DNA from: Octopus sinensis
Lineage: Eukaryota
Assembly (NCBI RefSeq): GCF_006345805.1
Contig: NC_043008.1
Span: 57,474,001-57,538,000 of the forward strand
DNA length: 64,000 bases
Direction of reading: 5' to 3'
Shown: positions 393-64,000 of the stretch, piece by piece
Position numbering within the stretch: position 1 is the stretch's first letter
Layout: every line of letters begins with the position of its first letter
Position numbers and translations under genes: made by a program
Notes under the pieces: model-generated
What the model saw: the letters and a program-made list of their open reading frames with translations, nothing else
Database searches by the model: none
What the model was told of the DNA's origin: nothing

Positions 393-1606
393 TTTATAAG
401 CCACACAGGGCTGAATACAGAGGGGACAAATACAAATGTAGAGCTTTTCTTTTAGAGGGTTGAAAAAAAGGAAAGCAAATGTAAGATTTTGATCAAAAGG
501 GGGTCGAGAGGAGGTGGGGGGAAATCCTGTATCACAGAAACACTTCTTTTAAAAAAACATTGATAAAAGAGGATTGGGTTCATCCGTGGGGAGAAAATCC
601 TACAGAAAAGACCACGGGACCTCAGTCAGGGAGGAAATAATCACACGAGAGTAAAATGCTCTCTCTCTCTCTTTTTTACGATTTACAGGGTCATGCTCAA
701 AATGGTTTCGTCACTCGCACGCACCATCTTTGCAACATTCACCCATCTCTTTTTTAATCTTTCGCGAGACAAAACATCCCTCCCCATTCTCACCTTCCTT
801 TTCAAGTGGTACTTGAAAAAGTTGATGAGCGATTGGCCAGATAGGTAAGTGTTTGTCTCTAATCCTTTGGCTTGGGTCTACCACACACATTCTTTCACCA
901 TGGCCACCAGTACGGTGAAAACTGCTTTGCCTTCCCGGTTGAAGGAAGGGGGTGGAGCAATTTTCACGATAGACTCGGCCGATAGGTGAACTCGTCCCAC
1001 ACGTGACAGCAGCCGTTCGGCATAAGCCCACAGGTCTGAAATGGTTGGACATTGCACGAGTGCGTGCAGAACGGTTTCTTCGCTCTGACCGCATCTCGGG
1101 CAAGTCAGTCCAGTGTGTCTGGAACCGTATCTGTAGAGCTTATCCCGAACAGGTAATGCTTCTCGATAGCACTGCCAGGCCAGGGATCTTTGGTCATTGT
1201 TCATAGGTCCCGGCCTGAAAGTTGTCCTGAACTTTCCTCGTCGACGCCCAGACTCTGCCCGAGATCGTCATCGCACCTCCCCTTCACTAATCCTCTATAG
1301 AACGCCTTTGTTGTGATGGAGTCGCACAAGTTTGATCCCGGACGGCAGAGTTGCTTGAGAGCAACGTGACACTCGCGGTGCCATTCACCTAGCCTCGGTC
1401 TCTGCTTGATCCATGACAGTAGTTCGGCCAAGGAGATGAGCTGCAGGAAAGCGCGCCGCACAAAAGGCGACCACACCCGATCACCGTCGTCTATGAAGCG
1501 CCGGAGATGTTGCAGTCTCAGTGCATGTCTGCGCATCATCAACCACGGCATGCCCAGCCCTCCATTTAGCGGGTGTTGACAGCAAATTGATCGCCCCAGT
1601 TCTTCT
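393..1606 (-). mobile_element. Tx1/L1-clade LINE, ORF2 3' fragment and 3' UTR (frameshifted)
   Basis: ORFs 878-1204 and 1201-1551 give GGLGMPW..., LAWQCYREALPVRDKL, CPRC...ETVLHALVQCP (zf-RVT region). The 3'-end motif gccacacagggctg is shared with the copy at ~6690. Confidence 0.9.
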
Positions 1607-1632
1607 CCATTTGGAGGTCCAGGCTGAACCAG

Positions 1633-2011
1633 ACTCTTTTACTTGTTTGTCAGTTGACTGTGGCCATGCTGGAGCACCGCCTTTAGTCGAGCAAATCGAC
1701 CCCGGGACTTATTCTTTGTAAGCCCAGTATTTATTCTATCGGTCTCTTTTGCCAAACTGCTAAGTGACGGGGGACATAAACACACCATCGGTTGTCAAGC
1801 GATGCTAGGGGGAACAAACACAGACACACAAACATGCACACACACACACACATACACATATATATACACACGACAGGCTTCTTTCAGTTTCCGTCTACCA
1901 AATCCACTCACAAGGCTTTGGTCGGCCTGAGGCTATAGTAGAAGACACTTGCCCAAGATGCCAGGCAGTGGGACTGAACCTGGAACCATGTGGTTGGTAA
2001 ACAAGCTACTT
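1633..2011 (-). mobile_element. tRNA-derived SINE (octopus-type) with internal CA/TA microsatellite
   Basis: B-box-like GGTTCAGTCCC on the minus strand at 1970-1980. Body resembles abundant octopus SINEs (recognition from memory). Confidence 0.75.
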
Positions 2012-2309
2012 TATTTCATAAATTTGTCATATAGACAGTACAAAGAGTGAATGAAAATGAATTATAATGAATAAATGAGACGAAACCCAACACCTGCCAA
2101 TTGGATTTTTCTCAAACATATTTTCCTGTTTTTTTTTTTTTTTAAATCAATATAAGGTTTCGAAACTTTTACAAGGAGGAGGCACTAAAACCTCTTACTT
2201 AACATATTTTCTTTTTTCTTTCTTAAAACACAAAATTGAGGTTATAAACCATTACAAAATAGTCCAATTAGGTGAGGTTTCAAACTCTGTAACGAGGGTC
2301 TTTCACTGC

Positions 2310-4700
2310 CTACTCTTCGATATATCCATCGGTATATTCATCATTATCTTCAATGCCGCTTGAGTTCCTGTATCTCGCCATTTCCCATGCCTCACTCATG
2401 TAGGACATGTAAGTCGTGAAAGGGCCACCCGGCCATATGCGACACTCCTCCCCAAATCCTTTAAGCCTTTCCCACAAGGGAAACCTTATGACCTCCACAG
2501 CTATCTGCGGAGGCCATTCGGGATCCCGTGTGAAGGGCATATCTACTGTTTCTTTAAATTCTGCTATTTTTCCACCTCCCCGCCCTTGTAGAAAAAGATA
2601 ATTAATTGATCATCTTTAAGGGTGGGGGTGGTTTCTTCCACCATGGGTGGCACAACTTCGGGACATGCAGTCGGCACATCATCTCCCTGCTGAGATGACC
2701 CGTTCTTTTTCTTTCTTTTTTTTCTTTTCTTCCTGGCTTCGGGAGAGTGGAGCCCTTCCTCTTTGTCCGGAGACTCTCCCCCGCCTCCCGAAGCCATAGG
2801 TTTCTTCAGTGGGCAACTATTGTTGCCCGCCTTCTTCCTTTTTAATCCTTTTTGAGTTGAGGAGGCTGAAGCCTCCTCGACCACATCCACCTCTCCCTTT
2901 GACCGGGTAGGGGAGGTGGCATCTAGTGACTGTTCCAGGACCTTACCGTGGTCCTGGGGGCAGTTCCTTTTAATGTGGCCTGGCTGCAGGCACGAGTGAC
3001 ACTTTGGGGGACGCCCCTCGAGTATCACCGGATACCTGCAGCCAGCCATTTTCAAGAAACCTGGAAAAACCAGTTCTGTTGCGGCCGATGGGGACCACAG
3101 GGTCAAAATCGCTTTTGACCCTTCCCAATCGACTGCTGGCAATACTCTTACATTTAAGAGCCTGGGAAAGAATTCTCGATCCTGCACATATCATTTTCGA
3201 GTAGGACCTCCGCAGCAAACTGTGGTGTGGGTAATAAAGCTGGCTTTTTTGTTCTTTCCGGCTGTTGTTGTTGTTGCTGCTGTTTTCTTGTGGCAGATTT
3301 GCAATCTTTTTTTAGATGTTGCTCACTGCCGCATATGTAGCAACGTGCTCTTCTGCCCTCGACGACCACATACAACTTGTGGTCTTCTGATATCTGGGTG
3401 GGTATTTTCTTGATGGCATCTTGGTTGATGTGTAGTAGAAATTATACTCTTTTTCCCACCCAGTTTTTGTGTTCAGTGACCGTGGTTTGTAAAATTTTGA
3501 AATCGTCTATTTCCACACTTATGGCCAATGCTAGCCATAGTGTCCGCTATTTGTGGAACATTGTTTAAGATGACCTTAGTCACTCTCTGTCCACTGTAGC
3601 TAGGTATCATTGTAAGTTCATCCGAATGAAGAGTTAGCATTGAGAATCGTCTTGCTAACTCTTCAGTGTGGAAAACTACTTGTATATGTGCAAACTTGTT
3701 CCACCAGGTCACATATTCTTTGAAGTTCCAGATAGGTTGCAAGCATTTTTCGATTTTGCTTGTGTTAGCCTTCTCTGGACTTTTTGTCTTCTTATTGATT
3801 ATTTTATATATAATAATTCTTTTTTTTTCATTGTCTAATATTTCTTGTGGTATGTTTATTTTTACTATACCATCTACTTCCGTTATTAAAATTTTCGTAT
3901 CTTTTATCTGTTGTGCAGTAAAAGATACTGTTGTCTTTTTTTCTTTTATCGCCTCGGCGAAATTTGTTGTTGTTTTGTTATTGTTGTTGTTGGCTGCAGT
4001 TGGTAAAATCAGTGTATTTGGTTTGATTGTGCAAGTAGGAAGGGGTGGAAAATTACTTGCATAATTTATCCCTGTATTCGAGCAGCTTTTGTCAATTTGT
4101 TTGGTGGCCACAGTCTTTTGTTTATCTCCTTCAGTTCTTGGTGTTGGAGGAAACAAAGTCTGAAAGGAATTGTTGTTTTTATTTTTGTTGTTGGTGTTGG
4201 CGGTGGTGTCAGTGGCAGCAGATATAGAAATGGTGACGCAATTGTTGTTATTCTTGTTGTTGGTAGTTGTGGTGGTGGTGGTGGTGTTGATTTCAGTTTT
4301 ATCTTTTTTTCTTTCAGCATGTTTGCCGATTGTATTTTGCAAAACAGGGAAATCTTTGTTAGAAACATAATAGAATATTTTTCTACTATAAGATTTCTCG
4401 ACATTATTTTTTTCCAGGAAAAATAAAAATAAATTGATGAAAATTGCCACTATGGGCAAATTCTATATTTAAAAAGACTCAAACGAAAGTTGGGCGTTTG
4501 AAAAGTTGAAAAACTCCGACAATGTAGAACGTAAACAATGAATGCAAACGAGAGAGAGAGAATAGCGTTTGTATGTTATTAGAAATGCTTCGCCGACATT
4601 GTGTGAAAAAACAAGTTATTACAGCAAAATTTTTATATATATTCGAGGCTGAAAATGCCCCTAGGGGCAAAATCCCTTCCGGAAAACACACCCAGATGAA
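2310..4700 (-). mobile_element. Tx1-like ORF1 region: 5' UTR plus two tandem ORF1-like segments, each with a CCHC zinc knuckle; no ORF2
   Basis: VEGRRARCYICGSEQHLKKDC (3154-3375) and LEGRPPKCHSCLQPGHIKRNC (2564-3187). 3473-4459 resembles ORF1 at 59892-61316 (IIIYK...IEKCLQPIW vs IVIYK...VEKCLAPVW). Confidence 0.8.
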
Positions 4701-6380: not shown

Positions 6381-6534
6381 AGAATAAATTCAATATTCTC
6401 TAGAATTATCAAAGACATGTTTAAGTGTTTCTAAAATAGAATATAATAAATAGAAAAATGATGAATATATACATACTTGTGTATGGTGAACAAAATGAAT
6501 AATGATGGATTCAAATTTTGCCACAAGGGCAGCA

Positions 6535-6650
6535 AAGATGAAAGGCAAAGTTGACCTCAGTGGAATTTGAACTCTGAACATTAGCTACTGATGAAATACC
6601 ACCATGCATTTTGCCCATCATGCTAACGACTCTGCCAGCTCACCACCTTC
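6535..6650 (-). mobile_element. SINE 5' head (octopus-type)
   Basis: Minus strand ggtggtgagctggcagagtcgttagc...gagttcaaattcc...gtcaactttgcctttcatc with A- and B-box-like motifs. Confidence 0.7.
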
Positions 6651-6654
6651 CGTA

Positions 6655-7900
6655 ATACTAATGATAATAATAATTAATTCTTTTTATTGGCCACAAGGGC
6701 TGACACACATGATTAGAAAACATAAAGGGACGAAAGATTACAAAGGGTTTTGTCCGGTTGTGAAAAAATCGTGTAAAAACAGTGTAACAATCAAATAATA
6801 TAACAACGAAAAACTCCCAATAGGGGGAGGCGCTTCGAAAGGTTCCTGGTGGAAAAAACCCCATAAAAGCCAACGGGAGCCTGGTCAAAAGTGGGGTAGA
6901 GAGCCCCTTTCTCCTTTTATAAAACCTTTTTCAATCACAGGCGAAACCTGAGAATTGGTCCATTTATACTGGCCATTCTCGCACAATTCACCCACCTTTC
7001 AGAAAACTTGCTATCGGACAGCACTCTCCTCTCTAACCTCATCTTCCTTTTCAAGTGAAACTTGAAAAAGTTGATGAGGCCTTGACCAAAGAGGAAAGTG
7101 TCTGACTTTAGCCCTTTCAAACGGGTCCACCATACAACCTCTTTCGCCACAACCACTAGGCACAAGAAAACGGCCTCGCCCTCCTTGTTAAAGGAGGTCG
7201 GCGGGGCAATCTTCATTATGGATTCGGCTGATAGCCGGATCCGTCCTATACGTGACAGTAGCTGTTCGACATAAACCCATAGTTCAGCAATACTCGGGCA
7301 CTGGATGAGTGTGTGCAGAACGGTTTCGTTGTCCTGGCAACACCTTCGGCAGGCCTGGCTGACGGCACTTCCGTGCCGGTAGAGTTTATCCCGAACAGGC
7401 AGAGCCCCTCGGTAGCACTGCCAGGCAAGCGACCTCTGGAAATTATCCATTGGCCCCGGCCCGAAAGTCCTTCCGAACAGACCGCTCAGTTTGTTATCGT
7501 CAACGCCTAGAGTTTCCCCGAGAATGTCGTTGCATTTTCCTCCACTAACCCTCTATAGAACGCCAGAGTGGAGCTGAAACCGATCGCATTGCCCGCCTGG
7601 TGGAGGGTGGAGAGAGCTTGACGGCACTCAAGGTGCCAAGCGCCCTTTCTCGGTCTACGTTTGATCCAGGTCTGCAGCTCTGTCAAAGAGACGAGCTGCG
7701 TAAAGTCGCGTCTGACATAATATGACCACACCTGTTCACCGTCTAGGAAACGCTTGAGATGTCGCAGCCTGAGCGCATGTCTGCGCATCAGTAACCACGG
7801 CATGCCAAGGCCTCCGTTCAGCGGTCGTTGACAGCAGATGGATCGCCTGACCAGTGGCACCTGACCCTTCCACAAAAAGTCGAAGAGCAGGTGTACCACC
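6655..7900 (-). mobile_element. Tx1/L1-clade LINE ORF2 3' fragment and 3' UTR
   Basis: ORFs 6935-7450 and 7507-7905 (FDFLWKG, NGGLGMPW, LAWQCYRGALPVRDKL, CRRC...HTLIQCP); paralogous to 393-1606. Confidence 0.9.
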
Positions 7901-8280: not shown

Positions 8281-8619
8281 TGATGACAATCTAAACTGTC
8301 AAACATCTAAAACATTGATGTTGGGTGTGTACCACATAAAATCGTACACTGCCATACAGGATATGAATCTGTATTGTCCTTCAGGTGTTTTCCAGCTACT
8401 TTCTAATTGATATTGCATTCTGTACCTCCTTCTTTTCATTGGCAGGTATAGTTTGTGTAGTTTGGAAGATGATACCGGGCTTCACAAGTCCTGTTACACT
8501 TGTTACGATGCTCTCAACAAAGGACACGACAATAGTTTTGTGCAGTCAGACATGTTTTTATTGTTTTAACGTATAAATATGTGTTTAAATATTAACAACA
8601 ATCAACGTAACTGCCTCCA

Positions 8620-9545
8620 GCAGTGAGAATGCTCTCCAGGTAAGACCTGAAGGCTGTGCACACATTGTGGACAAAGTCCTTCATACTGGCCCACATGCAA
8701 TTGACGGAGTACTTCATTTCATCAATGTTGCTGTGGTGGACCATGCAGTCCTTGCCCTTGACATGTGCCTATACGCTAAAATCAGTTGGATTGGGGTCAG
8801 GCAACTGCAACGGCCAAAATCCTTTGACCAGAAGTTCATGTTTGACGCCATCCATTCTCACACAACCCTAGCCATGTGGGCCAGGGCACTGTGCTGCTGA
8901 AAGACGTAGTTGGTCTTCTTCATGATATTTTTCACCCAGGGCAGGACTTTCATAGCCATGATGTCCCTGTTGTTGGCTATGATGAGCCTGTAACTGGTTG
9001 CGAACCACACTGTCATCATCTTCTTGCTATCTGAAGTCACAACGCAAAGCATCATCAGGTTGTGGGCATGTAGCAGAGCTTAGAGATTTGCTGGCTGAAG
9101 CTGATCAAGGGGTCGTTCTGATTGTTGATGACTGGATTGACCATGAAGGTGTTTTCATCAGAAAACATGAGAATCCACTTGCCATGACACTTCAAGTTGT
9201 TGAGTAGGTGATAACAGTGCTCCCAATGATATTCTTGCATATGGTCTGTGAGCAGAGACCTTTCTATGCACCTCAAGCTCTTGACATTCCTGGACACTGT
9301 TGCCACTGAAATGCTGTTGTCCTTCATGAGTGCAGTCATTTTAAGCTTCTGGTCGCTTTCGAAGGCTTTCTCTCCGCCAAACTGTTGACAATTTCATGTC
9401 TGTTTGATTGAGGTTGATCTTAGAGGTTTTTCTTGTTCTTAAGAAGCCTCACTGTGAATCTGTGGACAGTCATTTGGCTGACATTTAGCTGTTTGGCAAT
9501 GTTGGACTTGTGGCCCATGTGCAGGAGAGCAGAAATCTCGATTTT
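8620..9545 (-). mobile_element. Decayed Tc1/mariner transposase
   Basis: FSDENTF, YVFQQHSALAH and NMNFWSKDF remnants; HTH-like NIAKQLNVSQMTV. Paralog at 25690-26300. Confidence 0.8.
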
Positions 9546-10798: not shown

Positions 10799-10923
10799 GT
10801 TAGATAAGAATACACATACATCTAAAAAAAAGCAAATAGATAAATAAATAAATACACGTACAAATAAATAAATATATATATATATATATATACGCGAGAA
10901 AGAAGCAACAAGAATGGATAGGT

Positions 10924-11014
10924 TTTTAGTACGATCGTTTCATACAAGGACAGGTTTTATTAAAAGTTGCAAAGATTACAGCATATAAACGAGTCCCGTA
11001 CTCATCAGCTAAAA
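10924..11014 (-). ncRNA. Hammerhead ribozyme, inverted pLTR copy
   Basis: Reverse complement of 13932-14022. Confidence 0.85.
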
Positions 11015-13931
11015 TACATGTAAGTTCTCTAGACATCCTAGTGTTTGAGGCTATACTCATGAAGTAATGTAGGTATTTGATAGGGAGAACTCACGTATTC
11101 CTAATAATGAAGTTATCAGTAATCACGTAAGCAGCAAAAAAGACCAAGCCCGAAATAAAAGTAGAATTAAATTAACGGTAAACGCTAATCTAGAGTACAG
11201 GCCCAACAATCCAAATAGAAGCATTGACCAGAACATAGGTAATTCGGATAAGATTGAAGTAGATAAACCTAAGATGCACACAAATAAAAAAAAATAATGG
11301 TAATAAATAATAACTAACTCCGGTGAGATGAATAGTAATATTCTACGAACCCTAAATTTTATAAAAAAGATATATTATGGCTGAATATTCCTTTCAACTG
11401 TGCGATACAATCGGATTACAGAACAAATTCAAAGTGATTCTGGAAAAAAATTTCCCTATCTCTCATAGATATCATAGAATTATTTCTAGGAAAACAGTTA
11501 GGATTTCTTATTCAACCCTCCCAAATATGTCCACTTTAATAGCTAAAATTAATAATAACAACATTAAGCTAGCCAGGAAAGATAGAAATAAAAATAATAA
11601 TATCAGAATGAATACCAATAGCAATAACAATAATACTACCAACAATAAAAACAGCAATAGGAACTATCAAAACATAGGTGAAATTAGTAACCACAGAATG
11701 ACTAATAACATTAACATTAATAGTAATAATAACAATGCCGATATTAATAGAAGTAATATTGTTAATAATAGAATAGAAATAATATAAATAAGCTAATGGA
11801 GAAAATAAGGAGAATGAAAATATCAGTGATATCTATAACAATAATATGCAGTTGGATAAAAAGACTAACAATAATAATAACATTACGAATAATATAAGAA
11901 ATCTTGGTAGGACTTTACACCTAAATGATGAATCAGAAGGATCAATAAATAATAACAATACTTTAGATATCAGCACCAACTATAGAAATGATAATCAAAA
12001 TAATAGGAACCTTAAACATCTACCCAGGAATAATCCAAGGCCTGAAGTTGTTCCTCCTGTGTGTAAGTGTAGAATAAAATCAAAATGCCCGCACCTGGTC
12101 TATGTAGGGAAAATAATGTAATCTATAAATGTACCATATCCACGGAGAATAACAAATATTTTTACATTGGCTGTACAATTAATTTTTAGCCAGAGTTAGA
12201 AATCACATCTCGACTTTTAAATTACGTCATAAAGCTGGTACCACCACACTTTCAAACAAAATCTGGGAACTCAAAAATAATAATAAAAATTATACCCTTA
12301 ATTGGGAAATAGTTAGGAGAGCAATTCCGTATAAAAATAGTAGGGTTGGTTGTCAACTATGCTCCATGGAGACGTACGAATTCTAAAGCATAGTAAACAT
12401 AGAAACTTATTGAATAACCATATCGAATTAGGTCAAGTTTGTGTCCACGCTAAATTGAAGACTTTAAAATATTTTAAATGATTGGAATATCATAACTAGA
12501 TAGATAGATATAACTTGATTTCTACTAGTATAGCACTGCTTTAAGTAGATAACTAAGAGTTCTCACATTACAGTTATCTTTATCTTTTTCCTTATATCTG
12601 CATCAGTTTTTTGAGAACAGGGAAATGAATAGTACTTATTCGCTACTTAATTGAGGCTTTATTTAATTTCAAACTCACAATTTTTAAATTCTTAATTTTA
12701 AATCTTAATTGTAATATTTATTTTAATTCCTACTTAATCTAATTTAAATAGCATAACTCTAATAAATTATAATTAGTTACTGTAGCCACATAATTCTATT
12801 TCATAATTAAATAAATAAGGCTATTCCCTCGGTGATATATGATTGTCTTCATTATGATAGACAATCCCCTAACACCTTGTAAATAATCTTATAAGATTTG
12901 ACCTGTAGTCAGTCAATGTATGAATAATAACGACAACTCCTTAAGACAATAAAATGAATAAATGAAATAAGTAATTTTTTAATGACTTTTTGATAAGATT
13001 ATACTTAGATTTTCCTAATGTATTTTCTGGCGATTTTAGCATCTGACCCCTTAACCCCTGACTATGTTATCTCTTTAGATTCTCTTTAAACTCATAGCTG
13101 ATTTCAACAGCAATAAATTAACGGTTTACTGGTCAAAGAATATTTTCTCCTCTAGTTCCTAGATGCCTGTTGATTAAAACCAGACTTACAGTCTACTAAC
13201 TCTTCTGTATAACTAGAACCCTCTTTTTTCTTTTCCTTTTTTTCCCTTCTTTCCCTATTTCTTTCTCTTTTCTCTTTTTTCTTTTTCTTTTTTTTCTTCT
13301 TCTTATTCTCTGTTTCCTTTTCTCTTCTCTTTTAGTCCCCCTTCCCGCCCCCCCTTTTTGCTCCCTCCTCCATTATTTTCTCTCTTTTCTTCTATTCCCT
13401 TCTCTATTCTTGGCCGATCTAGTAAGCCCTTCAGCCTTTAAGAGTTAAATAGCTACAGCCTCTTGTGAATAGCAGTAATGTGATTAATGTGGCAAATACC
13501 TAATCATATGACAAGGATTGATACCTACCTCATTGTGTTCAACTATGTAAAAATTTATCGCCTGTGAATATGAAATTCATCTCCATTTCTCTGGAAATTT
13601 ACATCTACACCATTAGAATCTGTGCATATATACAAAGGATTAATTCACCCTCTCTGTAATGCTAATAAGCAGGAATTAAGACCCACCTCGTTGTAATTAA
13701 CAATGGATAAATTTGTCTTCTGTGAGTATATAATCCCTCATCATATCTATGGAAATTCATATGGATTAGGTCACCTTCTCTGTGATGCTATCAAAACTTT
13801 TTTAAAATTCTGTGATAAGACTGTACATCATCTTTAAAGAACTTTAATGAACTTTAGAAATCTGTTTAAATACCTACATTACTTCATGAGTATAGCCTCA
13901 AACACTAGGATGTCTAGAGAACTTACATGTA

Positions 13932-14022
13932 TTTTAGCTGATGAGTACGGGACTCGTTTATATGCTGTAATCTTTGCAACTTTTAATAAAACCTGTCCTT
14001 GTATGAAACGATCGTACTAAAA
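13932..14022 (+). ncRNA. Type I hammerhead ribozyme in PLE pLTR
   Basis: Stem I ttttag/ctaaaa; CTGATGA 13938-13944; stem II gtacgggac/gtccttgtat; GAAA 14005-14008; palindromic stem III cgatcg; GUA cleavage triplet. Confidence 0.88.
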
Positions 14023-14224
14023 ACCTATCCATTCTTGTTGCTTCTTTCTCGCTTATAATCACCCCACATTACTGTATTGTTAAATCAGTATAGTTTTTTT
14101 TGGTGCATCTAAGTTAGGTACCATATTCAAGTAAATTTTTTAAATTAACTTGAATCTTTATTGCTCTTTGAATATATTCCCATACAGTCTGTATGTTTTT
14201 CTGGTACTTAATTTCTCAACAAGA

Positions 14225-18515: not shown

Positions 18516-18606
18516 TTTTAGCTGATGAGTACGGGACTCGTTTATATGCTGTAATCTTTGCAACTTTTAATAAAACCTGTCCTTGTATGAAACGATCGTA
18601 CTAAAA
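18516..18606 (+). ncRNA. Hammerhead ribozyme, second pLTR copy
   Basis: Same sequence as 13932-14022, offset 4584 bp. Confidence 0.88.
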
Positions 18607-18749
18607 ACCTATCCATTCTTGTTGCTTCTTTCTCGCTTATAATCACCCCACATTACTGTATTGTTAAATCAGTATAGTTTTTTTTGGTGCATCTAAGTTA
18701 GGTACCATATTCAAGTAAATTTTTTTAAATTAACTTGAATCTTTATTGC

Positions 18750-49620: not shown

Positions 49621-49679
49621 AAATAAATGACATCATCAGGAGGAACCACGTCCGGTTTCGGCCCCTACTCCTCTACCGT

Positions 49680-50842: not shown

Positions 50843-52860
50843 TAGGGCTTGCAAAAAAACTGATTATTCCCAAAACCGAGTTTAAGTATAAGTAATTCTC
50901 AAAACCGGTTAGAAACCGGTTTTCGCAGATTTAGAGTGGAGTCCCTGTAACAAAGAAGTTTGTCATTGTATTTTGTTACCAGAGGAAAAGAGAGAAAGTA
51001 ACAGGTTGACTGATATCCACAAATATGTTGATGGTGCCTGTATCTATGTACAAGCAATAACAAAAAAAATAATGGTATTATATTTATTGAATGAGGAATG
51101 CAACGTTTTTCTAAGTCGTATTTTTGAGAATCAAACCAAGTTTCTTGACTTGCTGATTCACTTTCCTTGGAAAATAATCTTTTAAAAAACACAATGCATT
51201 CAGTGTTTTACCTGACAAACTTGTCATAATTTTTGTGTTGAAAAGTCTAGTAATTGAAAAAGCTCTTTCCAATTGGACACTAGTTGCTTTAGTTGTAAGC
51301 AATGCTCTTTAAAGTTTTTTGAGCTTTTCACTTCTGTTCGAATTTGCTTCAAAATATTCAAATTCTTTAGAGATTTCACATCCATCTGTTACTATCTTGG
51401 GTTCTTCATTCATTTTCTTCATTGCACTTGTGTATTCACGAATGAGTTCATTACCTTTGTAAGTAGATGGGACAATGGTAACACTTGTTTTTAGGTTCCC
51501 TCCTATTTCATTTTCTTTGTATAATGCTGTTGTGTCCTCAGCATCATGTTCAGGGAATAATCTATGTTTGTTCAGCATACTTCCTTAAATGTTGTTTCAT
51601 TAAAAAAAAGAAAAGGTCCAGAAATTGATTCACCTTTAGACTTCCTTCGGTTATGTAAATACCTCAAGAGAGTCAAGGTTTCGACATTTCTTCTCTTATT
51701 ATATCTATGCATAAATCTTTTACGAAGATTTAGAGCCAAAGGGTTGCCGACAATATTAAGTTTATTCAATAAAAATTCTATAGAATATTCTGCTTTCAGT
51801 AAATCCGTATCATCAGTGCAAATAGCCTTCAAAATAATTTCTACTGGATGCAGAATTTCATATAGTAAATCAAGAGATTTCCATTCTTAGTCAGCTACGG
51901 CATCTGTGGAAAGTACTGCTCGTAGAGCATTTGGAATACAGCTTTTCAATTTCAAAAATCTCTCAATTATATGGAATGTGCTATTCCGCCTAGTTCTGCA
52001 ATCCAGTATAAGTTTATATTCTCTGTTATCAAAGTTCGCTTGTGCAAAATCTTGCAAAATTTCATTATTTGTAGGAGATTTATGGAAAAGTTTTGAAATT
52101 TTTCTTACCTTATTTAAAACTTTGTTAAATTCAGGTTTTAGCTGGAGAAAACAAACATTTTCGTGAGCCAAATCTGTTTGAAAAAGTATGTCTTGTTGGC
52201 TTATGTCATCTTCATCATCACTATCATCTGTAATTGTGATCTCTTCACTTTTTTTATCGGTCTCATCGGTTGAGGCAATATTTTTTTGATAGAGAATGTC
52301 GATCACAGACAGATGTATGCAATGTGTGAGACATTGTTGGTGATCAGGTCTTGTTTCTTTTCCGAATTTCACCATCATAGAAGCACCATCCATCATACAG
52401 CCAACAATGTGTATATCCAAATCCAATCCAAATTCATGAAGATGTCCTCTCACAAATTGCTCTGTTCTCCTGCTATTAAGGGAGCCATGGATCTCAATAA
52501 GACCCAACGACCAATGATTGTCTTTCCCATGAACATTTATGTTCATATATCATTTATTTTGAATTGATGTGTATTCATCCAATGTCAATGAATATCGAAT
52601 CCCCAGCGCTAGTTTGTCTTTCTTGGTTATGTAATTCATTACCATATTCCTGACTCCGTTTGCAGATGTTGGTTGTAATTTATCATATTTGTCTCTCTGA
52701 CTATGAAGATTTCTCTGTATAAAATTGCTTTTGGCGATTGAATTGAAAGAGAATCCATCCATAGCAGCTAACTTCGAAACTTCTTCTTCCATTGATTTCT
52801 TTGTTAAAAAGTGTTCCATTGCTTTTGTTATTTTCCCAGGAGGCTGGTTTGCATCTTTAT
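50843..52860 (-). mobile_element. hAT transposase remnant with 3' TIR
   Basis: SLTLDEYTS, DGASMM, CLTHCIHL, LDCRTRRNST, ATSVQLERAFS; tagggcttgc terminus. Confidence 0.85.
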
Positions 52861-52879
52861 ATATATATATATATATATC

Positions 52880-53400
52880 AGGAACTATCAAAAACATCAA
52901 ATTTAAAAATCACCCATTGAGGTATAACCCGTACCAAAGAAAATTAAAAGAACTAATAAGAACTCTTAAGAGTAAGAACGGCATTCTAACCCATTCTGAC
53001 AAAACCAGTAACATTTATAATATGGACATCCTTACATACCATGAATTACTACATAAAGAAATTACTAAAAAATATAAAATTGTACCTTTTAACATACTTA
53101 GGAAACTAAACTTTGAGGTTAGAGAAATAATGTTGGATTATTACCTGGAAGAAAAAACTGAACCTTATACCCCCACTTAGGCAGACTGAGTAAACTTATT
53201 CTGGACAAATATTTACCAACTATACGTAACAAAATTAAACTTAGCCTTTGGAAGAATACTCAAGGTGCACTAGATTGGTTTTCTGCCATTAAGGTCAGTG
53301 ATAATGATAGAAGTAAATTCATCCAATTTGATATACAAAATTACTACACATCCATAAACCCTATTATATTAAATAAGGCTTTAATTTTTACTAGGAGACA
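52880..53400 (+). mobile_element. Naiad-type PLE RT fragment
   Basis: HPLRYNP, SDKT, GRLSK.ILD, FIQFDI..YYTSI; homologous to 14500-15060. Confidence 0.8.
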
Positions 53401-53429
53401 CTAAATTAAGTATGGGGGAGATTAGGGTT

Positions 53430-56031
53430 ATCTCCCTTCATCAAACCCACTTCCTGCCTCCTCATCCGTGCTACCATCCGTTCCACCCACTCTCTCCTTC
53501 ACTCCTTTGACCACCTACTTCCCCAAGCTTACCTTCTCTCCTCCCTCTGCCCTCCACTCTTCACCCAACCTATTCTCCGCTTCATTCTTAATCTCAACCA
53601 CCAGCTTCATAATTTCCTCACACACAAAAAACAAAAAAACTCCACCACCTCCTCAACCCTTCACCTCCTTCCCATCCCCTCTCCTCCTGTTCCTCCCCTC
53701 CAGCTCCCCCGACTCTCTCCACCCCCCTTCCCCCTCCACGGATCAACACACACCCCACCCTGACCTTTCTACACCTACCCCTACTTCACCTAACCACCCC
53801 CACTCTCCTCACACCTCTGCATCCCCTCTTCCCGACCCCACTCATCCCACCACCCCGCTTCCTCGCACTGTTGTCACTATAACTCCCAATCTCCCCCACT
53901 CCGCCGCCGAGCGCTCCCTCCTCAGTAAGGGACTCCGCTTCACGCCTCTCACGTGCCACTGTGACGAATTCAAGACTCGGATGGATGTCAACCAGTTCCT
54001 GCGCCGCCTCAAACTTTGCGCCTTCTACCACGCGTCTCCGCAGCGTCACGACAATCAGGATTGCTTTTTGGAGCTGGGGCGCTGCCCATCCAACTGGACG
54101 CCGCCCCCGGTCCAATTCAGTAGCCTAGACTCGTTTGTGAACGACTGCAACGCGTTGGTAAACCGGTTTAATTTTTAAAAAAGACCTCTCCGAGACAACC
54201 TCACACAGGCTGAATTGGTTGCCCTTTGCCACCTCCGTCACCGCAATGACATTGTCATCAAACCGGCGGACAAAGGCGGAGCAGTGGTGGTGTGGCGCGC
54301 CAATCTCTACAGGGAAGAAGCGCTCAGCCAGCTTCAAAATCCCCTCTTCTATCGCCTCCTCCCCTCTGATCCTACCTCTTCCTACCAACAGCGAGTGTCC
54401 TCCACTATCCGCGAACTCATCTCCTCTTCTGCTCTCCCCCCCACCGCCACCAACCTCATCGTCCGCACACCCCGCACCTCCACCATCTATTTCCTTCCCA
54501 AAATTCATAAGCCCAATACCCCTGGCCGCCCCATCGTTTCCGCCTGTAATTGCCCTACTGAACACATTTCCCTATACCTCGACCGCATCCTGTCCCCTTT
54601 AGTCAAAGCCCTCCCTTCCCACATACATGATACCAACCACGCCCTCCGTCTCCTCAATTCCTTTTCCTTCCCTTCCAGCCCCTCACACCTCCTCTTCACC
54701 CTTGACATCAAATCACTGTATACGGTAATTCCCCACAACGACGGTCTCCTAACTCTCCAACACTTCCTCGACCCCACCCCTAGCACCCCCACCCTCCTCC
54801 GCCTGGCAGAGCTCGTCCTAACTTTCAATTGTTTCATGTTCGCTGGGGAAACGTACCAACAGGTGTCCGGGGTCGCGATGGGAATGAGAATGGGTCCCAA
54901 TTTCGCCAATCTCTTTGTTGGCTACATTGAGGCCCAAGTATTCTCCCAATTCTCTGGACCGACCCCAGAACTATACGGTCTTTACATAGACGACTGTATA
55001 GGCGCCACCTCCCTTTCCTGCGAACAACTCTGCCACTTCATCTCCTTCCTCTCTAACTTCCACCCCTCTCTACAATTCACTTCTACCATATCCAATACTT
55101 CCGTTAACTTCCTTGATATCTCTCTCAGCATCGACCACTCCTCCCACTCTCTCACTACCTCCGCCTTCTTCAAACCCACGGATTCCCACCTCTATCTCAA
55201 CTTCTCCTCCCATCCCTTCCACACCAAACGGGCCATCCCCTACTCCCAGTTCCTCCGCCTCCGACGCTTGTGCAGCCGCGACCAGGATTTCGAGACCCAG
55301 TCTCAATACCTGGCCCGCCTGTTCAGGCTTCGAGGATACCCACCTACCCTGGTCTTGAACGCGCTCGTCGCATTGACCGCACCACCGCCCTTTCTCCTTC
55401 CAATCACCCCCCCCCCCAACCGCACCCCTTTCCCCTCCTTTTCCACCCCTCTACTCTACCCCTTCGTCGGAAGATACTTCGTGCCTTCCGTTGTCTCCAG
55501 CTCTATTCCACGACCCACCCCATTTTCCCCAACCCACCCCTGTCCTCCTTCAAACGAGCCCGGAATCTACGCGACCTCCTGGTCCGTAGCACCCTCCCTT
55601 ACCCCTCGGCCCCACTCGGATCCTTCCCATGCTCCAGATCCCGCTGCAACACCTGCCCCTTCATCACCAACACCACTGCTGTCACCGGTTCCAACCGGCA
55701 AACTGTACGTATCAGGTATTCCTTTACGTGCACCTCGTCTGGACTCATATACTGCATTAAATGCAACCGCTGCAGGATGCTGTATATAGGACAGACGGGA
55801 CGCCGGTTGTCAGACCGATTCGCCGAGCATCTGAGGGATGTTCGTCTACCTTCCAATTCTCCCGTCGCATGTCACTTCTGCTCGGCCAGCCATTCCCTCA
55901 ATGACATCTCGATGTTTGGTCTTGCCCCACACAACGGCTCTCCACAATCTAGGCTTCACTTGGAGCAACGGTTCATATTCCTTCTACAGACTCTAACCCC
56001 ACACGGACTCAACACAGCCCCCTCCTCTTAG
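53430..56031 (+). mobile_element. C-rich Neptune-type PLE, RT + GIY-YIG with few disruptions
   Basis: LLSKGLRF, IKPADKGG, YFLPKIHK, LDIKSLYT, GVAMG, YIDD, CSRSRCNTC, LIYCIKC..YIGQTGR. Confidence 0.92.
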
Positions 56032-56759: not shown

Positions 56760-57290
56760 AATCTAATTTGGTTAAGCAGACCGAATTGCGGACTCTATCA
56801 ACTCAATCATCAATCCACGGAATAGGGGAAGAATCTGTGGCCTGGCCTTGGTGTAATTATTGATGATGCTATCGTGTAGGGGTTGTGAATATATGCTGTT
56901 TTCTACCAGGTACAAGTTCTTGGTTTTGTTGGGAAAAAGTGCTTTTTTTTTTTTTTTTTTTTTGAGCTTTTTATGTAACTTATATATTTTTTCAGTTTCT
57001 GTTTGAAAGTGTTAAAAGACTTACGGAATTTTATTTTGTTCATAAGCTTCAGTAGGTCTGCTTCGAAGTCTTCCAAGCCATTGCTCTTTGGAGGGAATTT
57101 CTTAGATTTTATACCATAGAATATATTTTCTATGGTGTCCACTTCCGTGTTGTAAAAGAAAGCTTTCCATCTCATGCGCTTCATCAGGCCTGTATTATTC
57201 TCCAAAAGTTTCCCTTGATGGTATTGGTATGTTTTTCATAGAATAATCGACGTAATAAGTGTCGATATTGAATTCTTTTGCGGGATAGTC
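56760..57290 (-). mobile_element. Naiad-type PLE N-terminal fragment
   Basis: DYSMKNIPIPS, MKRMRWKAFF, FEADL. Confidence 0.75.
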
Positions 57291-58162
57291 CTCAACCGAT
57301 GCCAAGGATATATATATTGTTACGAAACCACCTGCCGTTGCTTGAACTTCGGAACCCGGGACCCTACCAAGTTGAGTGACGACGATTGACCGGCCCAGTC
57401 GAACGGGGAATTCGCCACGGAAAGAGAGGATTCGGTGGGGGAATGGCAGCGAACACAAACCGGAGACCGGAGATAACAGCAACAGCAGGAAGAAAAACAG
57501 AGACACGGCGGAAGGCAATTGGCTACATTTAAGAACAGTTTATAACTATTACAAAATCAAATACAATGTGATACATATCAAAGATACATTAAAAAAAATA
57601 ACATGCAAGAAAACAACAAAATCAAAGCATTTAAACGGTTCACATCGAATCAAAACAGAATGTTCATGATATAGCACAGCCCGGAGACAATAGTTCAAAT
57701 CAGTTCAATGTTCTACATTAGTCTCTCTCTTTCTTTTTCTTTTCAACACAGTTCTTTCTTTTTCCTCTTTCCTTCTTTCTCTTTTTTTTCACATCAATTC
57801 TCTTTTCTTTAACAACTCTTTTTAACACAATTCACATCAAAACATAAACAACACATACCGTTACATTTTCTAGTTACAACTCCTACTACAATAGCCATGC
57901 CTTCTATCCGCTGTAATCCCTCTCTTTCGCTCTACATGTTCCCAATGCTTATCTGTCTGTCTTCCTCACCACGCCTGTCATCCTCTCGCCATCGCCACCT
58001 TCTTGGCTGCTGTCTTTTGCCAACTGACTGCCTCCTCCAGCCCCTTTGCTGTCTCAGGCAGAACTCCTAAACTGCCCTGTTACCAATTCACTGTCTCCGG
58101 CCGAGCTGACCCAACAAACCCACAGCTCCCGCATTTTAAAGGGTAGCAGATTTATTTTTTCC

Positions 58163-59863
58163 TTATAAGGTGTAGCGTATAAGGTGAAGATTGTCCTGGA
58201 TCGACCTGCCTGGAATTGCACATGTCTGTGCTCTCCCTACAAGTTTCTCCACGACAACCGTCAACCTTTTTGCTAACACCTTGGCCAAAATCTTTAACTC
58301 TACATTAAGTAGAGTTATGGGCCTGTAGTTACTAATATTATCCCCCTTGCTCGGGTCTTTCTGGATTAGCGTTACCACTCCCCGGCTTACAGAACTGGGA
58401 ATTCTCCCATTCTGTTGCCAGTTCGTGTAGACGCCTGCCAGTATTCCCCCGAACAAGTCCGGCATACTTTGGTAAAACTCGTAGGGCAGACCATCCAACC
58501 CCGGCGACTTCTCCCCGGCGCATCCGGCCAGTATCTCCTTTATCTCCGCGGGAGTGATCGCTCCTTCACAGCACTCCACCTCTCGCCCCGCGAGCCGCGG
58601 TCCGCCGGCTAGGAAGTCCTTTAAGGCCCTCCCCCGATCCGGCGAACCACCACCCCCGAACACGCGAGCGAAATGCTGGTGAAGAAACTTTTGCATCTCC
58701 TCCTGTCCATAGATCTTTTGTCCCTGTTCGTCAGTCAAAGATTTGATTGAGGCTCTGTTGCCTCTCTTACTCTCCACACGACGGGCCCATCCGACCACGT
58801 TAATGCCTTCTCGTTTCCCAGCGCGCAGCTTAGCTCTGACTCTGCAACCTTCGTGTTTGGAGTTAAGGTGACGGTACAATACCGTCCTTGCCGCCAACAC
58901 TCCGGATGCAGAGCCAGCTTCCATTGCCTCGTCTAGATTCTTAACTAAATCGCCCTCTAGACTAGCCCTATCTATCCTTAGCTGATTGCTAAATCTAACG
59001 GACTCTAAACGAATGGCTCTTTTGAGGGCGTGCCACCATCTATTGTTAATGATGGTGCCGCACAATGCCCTCTGAACTAACACCTTAATCCGGGTACGGA
59101 AGTCTTCACAATTCAAAATAGCCTTGTTCAGCTTCCAGTACCCGGGTCCCTGTCTATGACACTTGTCTAATTGCACCTCACACGTCACAAACTTGTGATC
59201 TGAGTAAGGTACAATATGAAATTGTGGACAACTAAACGTATCCTTATCTCTTTTCTTAATAAATATCCTATCTAGATACGATCTGTGTGAGCCGTCGTTG
59301 TTACTCCACGTCCACTGTGGAACGCTCGGCTCATCCAGTCGGTAACGGTCCACTAGATCAAAGCTCTCTAGTAGACCCTTGAGGCTAGGGTTCCCCTTCC
59401 TATTGGTTGAGCCAACACTGTCGATGTGCGCTTCAAGGACAGTGTTAAAGTCCCCTACTAGGATTACTGTTTTCGACGTCGCTAGAAAGGGCTCCAGGTT
59501 CCGAAAAAAACCCGTCTGTCTACCCTCGTTCGGGGCGTAGACAGCTACCAACCTGAAGGACTGTTTACTTGCGTGAGTCACATCCAGGACAACCAGCCTG
59601 CCTTCTGGGTCCAGAAAGACAGTACTTACCTGCAAGTCCAAGCTCTTCCTGATGAAGACTGCCACGCCTCTGCCTCTTCCTCGGCTAGGAGAAATAAATT
59701 TCTCGAAACCATTTAGAAGAGGCGAGAACGCTTGGGTCTCGCTCATCTTGGACTCGGTTGCAATAGCAATATCTATACCGTGTGTCGTGAGGTCGTTCAG
59801 GAAACAAATTTGTTTCCATTTCGACCCCATTCCACGTACGTTTATACAGCCCAGCTTAGCCAT
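58163..59863 (-). pseudogene. Tx1 ORF2: AP endonuclease and start of RT (566 aa, truncated)
   Basis: INVRG, ATES, VYAPN, VGDFN, SYLDR, SDH, GPGYWKLN, KSPGLDGL, YRPITLLN; ends before the YxDD motif. Confidence 0.92.
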
Positions 59864-61520
59864 TGCGGGCGAGAGAGAAAATTAAATGTACTCACGGTTG
59901 CGAAAGGGAGCAAGGCAGTTTAAATTTGCCTGCTTCCCTTTCTTCCGCTACTGCAGGGCCTTTGACCGGCGTTGCCACTGGGCTCTGGGTGGGTGTGGTT
60001 GCCGGGGTTATTGTTAGTTTGCCCTCTAATACCTCCTTGGTAACATCTCTTATTAGGCGGTTCCTCAGGTGTTCCTGAAGAACCTCCTCCTTCCATTCGT
60101 TCTCCCCTACCTTCGCGAAGCGCGCGATTGCTTTCCCATCTGAGGTTCTGCTGTACAGCATAAATCTCGAGAGTTTGCAGCATTTGTAAACTTTCTCATT
60201 TTTCTCATCAAACGCTATTATCTTTTCATTTTTCAGTAAGCATTTTTTAAGGTCTTGTTTTATGGGGAGGGGTTTGGCAAACTGTTTTCCAATGAAAACA
60301 GTGCCATGGGGGTAGGGTTGGGGGATTTGCTTGATGTGTGTGTCTGCTGTGTTAGTTGTTTTTTTCCTTGTTTGGGGAGGGGAGTCCTGGGTATTCTCTT
60401 TTTTTCTTTTGTGCGTGACTTGAGTGTATTCCATCAGTTCTGTTTGGTCTGTTTTTGCTTCCGTACTTGTCTTGGTCATTTTGTTGTTTTTATTTGTTTC
60501 CTCCCCTTCCGCGTTAGGTGCACTTGGAGGAGGCACTTCTTCTGTTCTTTTTTTCCTGGTACAGTTGGATCGGACGTGACCCTTCTCTCCACACTTGAAG
60601 CATCTGGGTCTCCGTCCCTCCACCGAAACTCTCATGGACGTACCGTCTTCATTGAAGATTCTGTCAGGCAGGCTCTCCAAGATCTTGTTCTCTGCCTGTA
60701 CGAGGAGTTCCAGAGTCTGACCCTTCCACCGTACCGCCTCCTTCCTTCTCATTTGCAGTATGGATATTTCGCGTTCCATATTATGCAAGACCGCCGCTGC
60801 TACCCACATGATGTCGTACCCTCTGGGTATGTCTTCAACCATTAACTTTGCGGTTCGCTTCCCCATATACGAGGGTAGCAGCATGATGTCGTCGTTTTTA
60901 AGGGTCAACGACGACACCTCTTTCGCCACCTCTGCCGTGTCAAAGTGCGCTTCGATCGTGGCACTACGTGCACCTCTCACTATATGGCGAATTTTGTCCC
61001 ACACCGGGGCCAAGCATTTCTCGACGATTTCATTTTTCATGTCCATAATCTTTTTTTCTTTAAAGCTGTACACTTTATAAATTACAATCCTTTCCTTGAT
61101 TTCTTGTACTTTCGCTTGCGGCGGTACAAGCCTTATCTCGCCTCCTTCCACTTTTACTAAGTTCCTGTATTCGTACAGCTGTTCGATTTTGAATTCGATC
61201 TCCAACATGGCGCCACCCACCGCGGCCGAGAATGACTGTCTGGGTACTTGATTTTCCTCCTTTTCACCTTTTCCCATCACGGGAAAGTCTTCCTTCGACG
61301 TCAAGTCGAACTCCATTTCAGGAAATTACCTCTAAGGTAACAAAATATGGTTAATACAAAATTTTCTGCCCCGTAGGGCGAAAATTACCGTTTTACAACG
61401 GGCACTGTTCAGTACAGTTAACACAAACAATGATATTACAACTTCGAACTCTCTTAAATGGCAGCGGCAAATTTCTCACAACGCAAACAGCAATAAAGAG
61501 AAGGCGATGGATATACATAT
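58166..61520 (-). mobile_element. Tx1-clade LINE with intact 5' end, 3'-truncated in RT
   Basis: 5' UTR, ORF1 and ORF2 start are contiguous and uninterrupted; flanked by 315-bp direct repeats. Confidence 0.92.
59892..61316 (-). CDS. Tx1 ORF1p, gag-like CCHC zinc-knuckle protein (474 aa, intact)
   Basis: VSVEGRRPRCFKCGEKGHVRSNC; directly upstream of ORF2. Confidence 0.88.
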   Translation of the reverse strand: MEFDLTSKEDFPVMGKGEKEENQVPRQSFSAAVGGAMLEIEFKIEQLYEYRNLVKVEGGEIRLVPPQAKVQEIKERIVIYKVYSFKEKKIMDMKNEIVEKCLAPVWDKIRHIVRGARSATIEAHFDTAEVAKEVSSLTLKNDDIMLLPSYMGKRTAKLMVEDIPRGYDIMWVAAAVLHNMEREISILQMRRKEAVRWKGQTLELLVQAENKILESLPDRIFNEDGTSMRVSVEGRRPRCFKCGEKGHVRSNCTRKKRTEEVPPPSAPNAEGEETNKNNKMTKTSTEAKTDQTELMEYTQVTHKRKKENTQDSPPQTRKKTTNTADTHIKQIPQPYPHGTVFIGKQFAKPLPIKQDLKKCLLKNEKIIAFDEKNEKVYKCCKLSRFMLYSRTSDGKAIARFAKVGENEWKEEVLQEHLRNRLIRDVTKEVLEGKLTITPATTPTQSPVATPVKGPAVAEEREAGKFKLPCSLSQP

Positions 61521-61984
61521 ACACATACCGTTACATTTTCTAGTTACAACTCCCACTACAATAGCCATGCCTTCTATCCGCTGTAATCCCTCTCTTTCGC
61601 TCTACATGTTCCCAATGCTTATCTGTCTGTCTTCCTCACCACGCCTGTCATCCTCTCGCCATCGCCACCTTCTTGGCTGCTGTCTTTTGCCAACTGACTG
61701 CCTCCTCCAGCCCCTTTGCTGTCTCAGGCAGAACTCCTAAACTGCCCTGTTACCAATTCACTGTCTCCGGCCGAACTGACCCAACAAACCCACAGCTCCC
61801 GCATTTTAAAGGGTAGCAGATTTATTTTTTCCTTAAACTTTCCCTGACCGTAGGGGCCAAAATGTCACTTCCTAATACATAAAACTTTCCAGAAACTAAC
61901 AGAACAAAAGATTTACCCGTCTGCTTGACGCCAACTCACAAAAGTGGGTCATAGCACTCTGTTTCTCAACTGACCCCATATCAC

Positions 61985-63095
61985 TATCAAAAGCCTTTTG
62001 GTAGTTGATCCAGGCCATACTGAGGCCTTTCTTCTTTCTGCGGCTGTCTTCAGTTATGGCTTTATTGATCATTATTTGATCTTTACAGCCATATGAGCCC
62101 TTGCAGAATCCCTTCTGCTCTTCTGGAAACGGGTTGTTTTATTCCAGATGCTTGCTCAATCTTTGCGATATTATTGCAGTAAAGGCTTTGTACATTGTAG
62201 GGAGACAGGTTATAGGTCTGTAGTTTTGTGGTTTTGTCATTTCATTGGATTTGGGAATTAAGATAGTTTTCCCTTTCATGAGCCATTCAGGCATTGTCTC
62301 TGGCTCTGCTAGTATGTTGTTAAAGTTTTCAACCAGCTTTTTGTGTATTCCTGTCAGATATTTTAACCAGAAGTTGGAGATCTTGTCGTGCCAAGTTACT
62401 TAGTCTTTGCAATGCCTGGGTGACCTCTTCAGTTGTTATAGGGGTCCAGAGTTGCCCAGATGCTAAGTTTGTTATTTTAATACTCCTTTTTTTTGGCTGT
62501 TCGTTCGCCGACCATATTTCTCTCCAGAATTCTTCCAATTCTTCTGCCGTTGGTGCTGCAGTGACTTCTATTTTATTTTTGCCCAGTTCTTGGTAGAACT
62601 TTTTGGGGTTGGAGTTGAACTTTTTGTTTTGTTCAAAGAAGCATTGGCGTTTCCCGTACCGGCGGATCCTTTGAGCTTTGGCAAGGATATCTTGCTTCAG
62701 CTTTTCTTTTATCTCCGGCAAATCTTTTTCTGTGATGTTATATTTGCGGAGTATTTTTGTTGCTCAGTAGCGTTGATTGTTTGCTGATTTCATTAAGAAT
62801 CGACAGATCTTTTCTCATTTTTTGTATTTTGTTTTGGATGTTATTTATCCACAGGGTTTGTTTGGGTGGTGGTACTCCTGTTTGGATGGGTTTGAGTGAG
62901 TATCCAGCTTCTTTTGAGGCTGCAGTGGCTGCTGCGTATATTAAGTCATTTAGCTCAGTGATATCGCTTTTTGTTTCAGTGGCTATTAGTTCCGTGACGG
63001 CTAGGTTTATGCTGTTTATAATTGGTGTTGTTGTTTCGTCTATTTTGATTCATTGGTCCATTCTGAGACCTGTGGTTTTCAGTTCTTTAATTATT
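61985..63095 (-). mobile_element. R4/Dong-clade non-LTR fragment
   Basis: EKLKQ..AKAQRIRRY...QNKKF....KKFY, NYRPITCLPTMYK, EQKG, LSMAWINYQKAFDS. Confidence 0.8.
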
Positions 63096-63109
63096 TTCAT
63101 TTTTATAGT

Positions 63110-64000
63110 ACAGTCAACTTTCGCTACTATGCCACCCTGCGGGACTGAGCCAAAGTGGCATAGTACCGAGGGTCTGTTATCTAAACACTACATAACCAAA
63201 AATTTACTGAACATACGAATAAAAATTCATAGGGTGGGAAGTAAGGCCAATAAGAAGTTCAATGCAATGGTAAAAAGAAGACATCCAAGTTTATTAAGTT
63301 CAGATTGCTTTTAGTTAATCCCGAAGCTCTCAAAAATTGTCAGCTGACGCATCTTCTTTCGGCGGATTTCATTCATTTCGTTGTCTAGCCTATCACACGC
63401 CTGCATGACGCTGGGTTTTCCGCTGCTCTGCTGCTGCATAAACTTTCGGATAGTGCTCCATGCTCTCTGGGCATCTGCAAACGAAACGTATTCCTCTTCC
63501 GCAATTACCTCATTGTCTTCACTTTCCACCGGCTCTTCGTTATGCATTACTTCTTTTGCTATTTCTTCTAGAGTATAGTTGGTATGAGTTATAGATGAGT
63601 ATACTTGGTATGAGATTATAGATGAGTATCTATTTCTTCTAGAGTGAAAGATCCTCCAGTTACGAGAAAATCAAACAGCTCAATTGTTTCGTTCTCATGT
63701 GTCTTTTCCTCGAGAGGTAAAGCTTTCCAGATCTCGAGCAGCTCAGCATCCTCTGGCTCTATTTGTATTTCCTCTTCAATAAACTTGGCTTTCGCGAAGC
63801 AGTTCTTAATCGTCAATTCACTGACCTGCTCCCATGCACGCCGAGCAATGTGCAGAGTGTCGAGCAATGTAAATTTAAACTCGTTTCCTTCATCCATGGC
63901 TTCGAGACGGTGGGACAGCAAGAGCTTTTTGTAATGGTGCTTAAGATTTTGTATGATTCCTTGATCCATTGGTTGGGAATTTGCTGTTGTGTTGGGCGGA
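63110..64000 (-). mobile_element. Tigger/TIGD-like pogo transposon 3' part with TIR
   Basis: PNTT..SQPMDQGIIQNLKHHY, AWEQVS..TIKNCF; ta|cagtcaactttcgc terminus. Confidence 0.85.

Follow-up and report, generated by a model that had tools for sequence, protein, structure and literature searches.

What keeps a crowded mixture of transposon and virus debris facing almost entirely one way? The question is raised by a 64,000-nucleotide stretch of the Octopus sinensis genome (the window; positions 57,474,001-57,538,000 of the contig here called C12, in a genome of 2.72 Gb), for which a preliminary description had proposed a unistrand, flamenco-like cluster giving rise to PIWI-interacting RNAs (piRNAs). 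We found that the window (393..64000) is the central part of a one-way mosaic of ~93 kb, the block, whose fragments lie antisense to the plus-strand gene POLH, which encodes DNA polymerase eta. The layout, the sharp borders, the place behind POLH and the recurrence of such mosaics at other viral inserts are seen directly in the DNA, and in every DNA-level test that we ran the block looks like a read-through unistrand piRNA cluster. Our preferred reading, held at a probability of about 0.55, is that it is a cluster of this kind, with a predicted precursor made by read-through from POLH. Coordinates are window coordinates, with negative values left of the window, and the flanks were inspected for 100 kb on either side.

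Orientation was scored on 300 open reading frames of the window scanned against Pfam, with tandem-array, low-complexity and some duplicate-copy frames left out. A fixed rule counted frames of at least 100 amino acids (aa) carrying a mobile-element or viral domain at E <= 1e-3, and matches to ALC, HTH_7, DUF223 and RNA_pol_Rpb2_2 (E 0.001-0.009) were set aside as weak. Seventeen of 18 qualifying frames were on the minus strand (binomial p = 1.4e-4). The fragments are partly non-independent, with a 3.1-kb duplication at 11077-14177/15658-18763 and a 1.6-kb unit present three times at 27952-34857; one duplicated element as the source of a false bias was ruled out, since 14 of 15 frames were minus once duplicated units were collapsed (p = 1e-3). 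Qualifying frames were also ~19 times denser in the window than in ten background blocks of 20 kb set at round coordinates before viewing (2.8 vs 0.15 per 10 kb, the latter from 3 of 114 frames). Over the whole block, a tblastn tally with self-matches removed placed 37 of 42 segments on the minus strand, and the 5 plus segments all came from three Penelope-like elements (PLEs); by bases, plus-strand PLE DNA accounts for ~11 kb of the 64 kb. Matched bases in this non-self tally reached 243 per kb in the block and 26 per kb in the flanks, a ratio that is inflated because the tblastn library came largely from such blocks.

The bias extends beyond retroelements to DNA transposons and viral pieces. 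Pfam or non-self homology backs Tx1/L1-type and other long interspersed nuclear elements (LINEs), PLE, Gypsy, mariner, Tc1, pogo, Merlin and Helitron, together with four types of short interspersed nuclear elements (SINEs) and the parvovirid nonstructural protein NS1 and capsid protein VP; LINEs and PLEs dominate the block segments in the tblastn tally. The strand bias is real and the feature sharply bounded. The preliminary description had reported a near-total minus-strand bias with only PLEs as exceptions and had called for a binomial test against background, and our counts agree with it; the SINE matches in the window, 6 in all, are likewise minus. Most of its superfamily labels also stood, except for hAT, which had no Pfam or PDB match; its Crypton is a QRICH1-domain repeat, and its five LINE clades are putative.

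With limits at about -14.8 kb and +78 kb, the block overshoots the window at both ends, with Gypsy gag and mariner pieces on the left and a second parvovirid insert, a LINE and PLEs on the right, all minus. Its plus strand is T-rich, and high-copy repeats are almost gone from it. It sets in 1-3 kb past the stop codon of POLH, whose 10 plus-strand coding exons extend from -40,072 to the stop at about -16,102, cover aa 1-838 and encode a product that shares 89% identity with its Octopus bimaculoides counterpart; the first antisense SINE lies 1.3 kb past the stop. A G+C-rich minisatellite with 26 copies of a 24-bp unit stands 0.45 kb past the same stop (-15,644 to -15,023; L009:4356-4977). On the other side, the first coding exon of DCAF12 lies at about 141 kb, and the interval from 78 kb to that exon yielded no host domain; a possible minus-strand exon at ~91.5 kb had no Pfam match, and a genome search with it gave just the adjoining repeat. 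The Pfam scan of the window likewise returned no convincing host domain, in line with the earlier statement that no host exon is visible.

An intron of a plus-strand gene, in a genome where ordinary introns are similarly biased, had been named as the outcome that would overturn the cluster proposal. The block begins after the coding end of POLH and is therefore not in a coding intron: the POLH coding sequence is complete to its left, and no single gene has coding exons on both sides, which rejects that candidate, although the block may still sit in an intron of a gene's untranslated region. We compared SINEs of four types, oriented by eye from their tRNA-like heads or GAT tail (no site in the block matched a strict B-box pattern, and ARAGORN returned no tRNA). 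SINEs were 0 plus and 7 minus in the block vs 22 plus and 19 minus in the POLH and DCAF12 introns (Fisher p = 0.011, or p = 0.05 once duplicates were collapsed); the intron counts were 11 plus and 11 minus in POLH and 11 and 8 in DCAF12, and the remaining flanks were about even. The bias of the block thus exceeds that of its surroundings, where the coding segments of the flanks split 4 plus to 7 minus. SINE density was 0.7 per 10 kb in the block and 8.4 per 10 kb overall in the flanks and introns, a ~10-fold depletion.

The same arrangement recurs elsewhere. Ten other parvovirid loci were picked by virus match alone, with their surroundings unseen and further matches left out. Among 245 frames scanned there, 36 had non-parvoviral mobile domains, and 34 of these 36 were on the virus strand (the frames are non-independent, with several per element); matches to DUF2321, Corona_5a, gerPA, Serine_rich, ankyrin, 3HCDH and similar domains in the sibling blocks were excluded from the mobile count. 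Dense one-way mosaics were found at six of the ten loci (C19a, C10, C27, C14, C29 and C16), four of them without any SINE match in 20 kb. SINEs outnumber all other repeats in the flanks but are ~10 times rarer in the POLH block and in blocks C19a, C10, C14 and C16, and their scarcity is a convenient marker for locating further blocks.

As with POLH, three of the six siblings begin immediately after the 3' end of a gene that points in the predicted precursor direction. A FAM69-type gene ends 2.9 kb ahead of the first fragment at C19a, DONSON ends 2.6 kb ahead at C16, and the late exons of an FKBP-type TPR gene lie about 10 kb ahead at C29, all antisense to the fragments. C27 is probably a fourth such sibling, with three exon-like frames that are likewise tail-facing and antisense; their gene is unnamed (no PDB match, weak Atlas leads). 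The best natural PDB matches of the C29 gene (L119:4504-7118) are FKBP4 and FKBP5, and it may resemble FKBP6/Shutdown, a piRNA factor. Ankyrin-repeat frames on the fragment strand occur in the C14 (L028:1012-2454) and C29 (L030:8316-8750) blocks and could derive from a host pseudogene, a transposon or a virus.

The features of the window, and the insert to its right, are as follows (RT, reverse transcriptase; EN, endonuclease; HTH, helix-turn-helix; ORF1, first open reading frame).
4..343, end of an 85-bp tandem array starting at -3,299
686..1638, minus, 3' piece of a Tx1/L1-type LINE (zf-RVT)
1633..2011, minus, SINE with tRNA head
2567..3441, minus, two LINE ORF1 pieces (zf-CCHC)
6530..6660, minus, SINE of a second type
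6938..7890, minus, 3' piece of a Tx1/L1-type LINE (zf-RVT)
8604..9393, minus, Tc1-like transposase piece (non-self tblastn)
10889..18763, plus, PLE as a tandem duplicate (98.7%) with a short inverted end piece, a sense exception
20873..21657, minus, Merlin-like piece and mariner HTH piece
22345..23502, minus, first parvovirid insert, a broken C-terminal piece of VP and then a broken NS1 helicase piece
23480..25059, minus, internal piece of a Tx1-type LINE and a second LINE RT piece
27650..35375, minus, unit of Helitron (Pif1), SINE and pogo, three times
about 30718-32907, minus, 3'-truncated Gypsy piece within the Helitron/SINE/pogo repeats
35489..36082, minus, C-terminal piece of a LINE (tblastn)
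36456..40508, minus, PLE pieces (RT, GIY-YIG)
40458..40617, minus, SINE of a third type
40678..43266, 108-bp tandem array of 24 copies
44815..45901, minus, QRICH1-domain repeat, possibly Crypton-like, with a 96.7% copy in the C10 block
46048..50641, minus, two PLE pieces flanking a non-LTR RT piece that contains a 52-bp array
51575..52909, minus, transposase remains without Pfam or PDB match, which by their motifs may be hAT-like
52707..56028, plus, two PLE pieces, sense exceptions
56853..57235, minus, PLE piece
57851..61835, minus, 5' half of a Tx1-type LINE (ORF1, EN and RT start; 58166-61325) between two 315-bp direct repeats
62142..63999, minus, non-LTR RT piece and pogo/Tigger DDE piece, with a 97.8% copy in the C27 block
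65,319-67,817 (L011:1319-3817), minus, second parvovirid insert

Tandem arrays inside the block have units of 85, 108, 52 and 99 bp. The Gypsy piece has an intact TG start, is cut inside its RT and joins its neighbour with a 2-base overlap and no loss of target DNA; this piece and the LINE at 57851-61835 keep their 5' ends and lose their 3' ends, unlike a normal insertion.

Of the viral pieces, the second insert is the better preserved, with an open 522-aa VP containing a PLA2 domain, followed by an NS1-like frame. The nearest solved capsid to this VP is that of Penaeus monodon metallodensovirus (E 5e-9), and its four distant relatives, at 31-35% identity, are not informatively named. The densovirus label given earlier holds only loosely, through that capsid, and we call the virus parvovirid. 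NS1 starts within ~30 bases of the VP stop on the same strand both at 65319-67817 and in the C16 block (L033:4400-6445), and the insert at 22345-23502 likewise has VP ahead of NS1. Parvovirids usually have NS before VP, the reverse of the order in these inserts, and a circular or concatemeric virus source is a possible origin of it. Contig C4049 (30 kb; L037-L038) has three VP-like copies in tandem and no NS1 match with the queries used. A piece of a replication protein (Rep) of the type of circular Rep-encoding single-stranded DNA (CRESS) viruses lies in the one-way block at C14 (L027:6356-6664; Viral_Rep, E 5e-23), and another was recognised by eye in the C19a block (L021:1714-2163). Since both parvovirid and CRESS-type pieces occur in such blocks, more than one group of single-stranded DNA (ssDNA) viruses is archived in them.

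If the block is a read-through cluster, RNA polymerase II from the POLH promoter would pass a weak polyadenylation site and make a long plus-strand RNA, which would be cut into 1U primary piRNAs for Piwil1 or Piwil2. By base-pairing, these piRNAs would silence sense transcripts from the virus and from many transposon families, and selection would retain antisense insertions and remove sense ones, leaving a one-way archive. On this basis the block would be a piRNA source and may be an immune memory. Several contigs carry multi-exon genes with a Piwi domain, with Ago and Piwi counted together. Piwil1/2 are described as conserved in molluscs (PMC6128900), and piRNAs have been sequenced from O. 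bimaculoides arm tissue, in a report whose relevant parts give no locus anatomy (PMC12479628). The stop codon of POLH is followed by 5.2 kb of plus strand without AATAAA; for DONSON, the FAM69-type gene and one control gene, the distance to the first AATAAA is 5.9, 2.2 and 1.4 kb, respectively. Ages give a faint hint of later removal of sense insertions: the best dispersed copies are 99% identical for the sense PLE at 10889..18763 and 96% for the longer sense piece of 52707..56028, compared with 92-93% for the antisense Tx1-type LINE (23480..25059) and 93% for the antisense PLE (36456..40508), both from full-length dispersed copies.

Several observations weigh against this reading. Among the ten loci, C19b and C5b are discordant and are not clusters, C5a is weakly concordant and C4049 holds only viral pieces; agreement at the level of blocks is 7 of 8 (p = 0.07). 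The six loci at which boundaries were followed were chosen after the bias had been seen, and only the predicted upstream side was followed; on that side, scanning 300 of 303 frames turned up no host exon at C10 or C14, and the tail-facing orientation of all four named genes gives just p = 0.06. Inside the C16 block there is a discordant Gypsy, near the C10 border a plus-strand CR1, and near the C29 border there is discordant material as well. The intron control uses SINEs, which are rare in the block, and the introns of two local genes, and the flank coding segments in the tblastn tally are themselves 4 plus and 7 minus. Antisense pieces with close copies also exist, at 97.8% (in the C27 block) and 96.7% (in the C10 block), so that age separates the strands uncleanly. 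Plus-strand AATAAA occurs at 0.88 per kb over the block and 0.95-1.14 per kb in the flanks and is thus not purged, and the sense PLE at 10.9-18.8 kb alone holds 30; a read-through RNA must therefore bypass many signals. Selection against polyadenylation signals as the sole cause of the bias is ruled out by the same lack of AATAAA depletion.

The explanation that survives best beside read-through is a unistrand piRNA cluster with its own promoter 1-3 kb behind POLH, as in flamenco, in which case the gene would merely give open chromatin. Orientation and density fit it equally well, the loci C10 and C14 showed no host exon on their predicted upstream side, and the G+C-rich minisatellite lies 0.45 kb behind the POLH stop. 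flamenco itself is described as lying downstream of DIP-1 with a presumed promoter of its own (PMC11615739), and position alone is therefore no proof of read-through. What argues against a separate promoter is that all four named neighbour genes meet their block tail-first and antisense to the fragments, and that the first AATAAA comes late behind POLH and DONSON, though not behind the FAM69-type gene and the control gene. The geometry points to POLH read-through more than to a promoter of the flamenco type, which we consider unlikely here; that the block is a piRNA source by one route or the other would, on the DNA layout, seem likely.

Quite unlikely, in our view, is a long 3' extension of POLH or a long non-coding RNA that yields no piRNAs, with sense insertions purged because they disturb the transcript and the block serving as a tolerated dump. 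Such purging is known from vertebrate introns, and the place behind a gene, the T-rich plus strand and the youth of the two tested sense PLEs (99% and 96%) would all fit. Neighbouring introns, however, have no SINE bias, polyadenylation signals are not purged, and viral inserts across the genome fall in such blocks. Coding fragments are enriched 10-19-fold and SINEs depleted ~10-fold, a pattern that purging alone does not predict. Finally, orientation arising at capture, with fragile sites behind genes taking up cDNA and DNA pieces by strand-dependent break repair, would suit the odd junctions (the 2-base overlap of the Gypsy piece and the 3'-truncated LINE between 315-bp repeats), the local tandem duplications and the SINE depletion, but is very improbable, as just two junctions were read, the youngest PLE tested (99%) entered in sense, and to our knowledge no repair route would give the same orientation to DNA transposons, retroelements and pieces of ssDNA viruses.

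flamenco content is dominated by gypsy-type LTR elements, and by that strict measure the block differs, Gypsy being a small minority of its segments. Of the flamenco-like cluster first proposed, the unistrand architecture stood, and the geometry favours POLH read-through. Flamenco and flam-like clusters resemble the block in that their transposon fragments are arrayed one way and lie downstream of a gene, whereas flamenco is directed at endogenous retroviruses, with its own presumed promoter (PMC11615739). The closer likeness is to the core clusters of mosquitoes, described as arising by read-through, trapping viral inserts in antisense and yielding piRNAs (Qu et al., bioRxiv 10.1101/2022.08.22.504762). 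These too are unistrand, start behind a gene of the same orientation, hold antisense non-retroviral viral inserts and number several per genome; the octopus block has two such inserts, and six of ten other viral loci are one-way mosaics. The mosquito clusters are documented by piRNAs, chromatin marks and joins made by reverse-transcription PCR, whereas the block is known from DNA layout, its inserts come from ssDNA viruses (parvovirid here, CRESS-type Rep at C14) and its host is a mollusc. In mammals, the piC-DoGs (Konstantinidou et al., PMC11615739) extend for tens of kb directly behind a protein-coding gene and are densely filled with antisense transposon fragments, an architecture that yields piRNAs. 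For these, mainly LINE-1 and endogenous retroviruses are named, in pre-pachytene germ cells, in contrast to the about ten superfamilies of the octopus block, DNA transposons and viral pieces included, and its predicted read-through. The block has the dense fragments and strong one-strand bias of such clusters (17/18 frames, 37/42 segments, ~19-fold density).

Among molluscs, unistrand clusters dense in transposable elements are described in the slug Arion vulgaris (PMC11615739). The reported passages on slug and other molluscan clusters mention no link to an upstream gene and no viral inserts, unlike the octopus block (PMC11615739, PMC6128900, PMC11067994). Those given in PMC11067994 span 2.7-17 kb, with none from cephalopods in the passages concerned, and the content of molluscan clusters departs from the genome-wide repeat landscape (PMC6128900, PMC11067994). 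Parvovirus-related sequences have been reported in molluscs, in a text without the word octopus (PMC5013282). We found no description of cephalopod piRNA clusters or of octopus parvoviral inserts in the titles and abstract starts of the mostly open-access literature, supplements aside. The earlier impression that nothing of the kind was described in cephalopods agrees with this, with the slug clusters as a molluscan precedent, and the octopus block would add to a known class of clusters.

Taken more broadly, the seven loci tentatively suggest a genome-wide octopus set of gene-read-through piRNA clusters (behind POLH, DONSON, the FAM69-type and FKBP-type genes and others), which may be where ssDNA-virus inserts chiefly come to rest and may provide an inherited antisense defence against DNA viruses and transposons; we hold this wider view possible rather than probable. 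With their borders and four named upstream genes, the loci are directly checkable with octopus small-RNA and stranded RNA data. Given the antisense parvovirid inserts in blocks on different chromosomes, the idea that a mollusc keeps a piRNA-based memory of DNA viruses becomes testable. If true, clusters downstream of genes would be present in all three bilaterian branches, with the octopus set adding Lophotrochozoa, which would suggest that read-through is a general route to such clusters.

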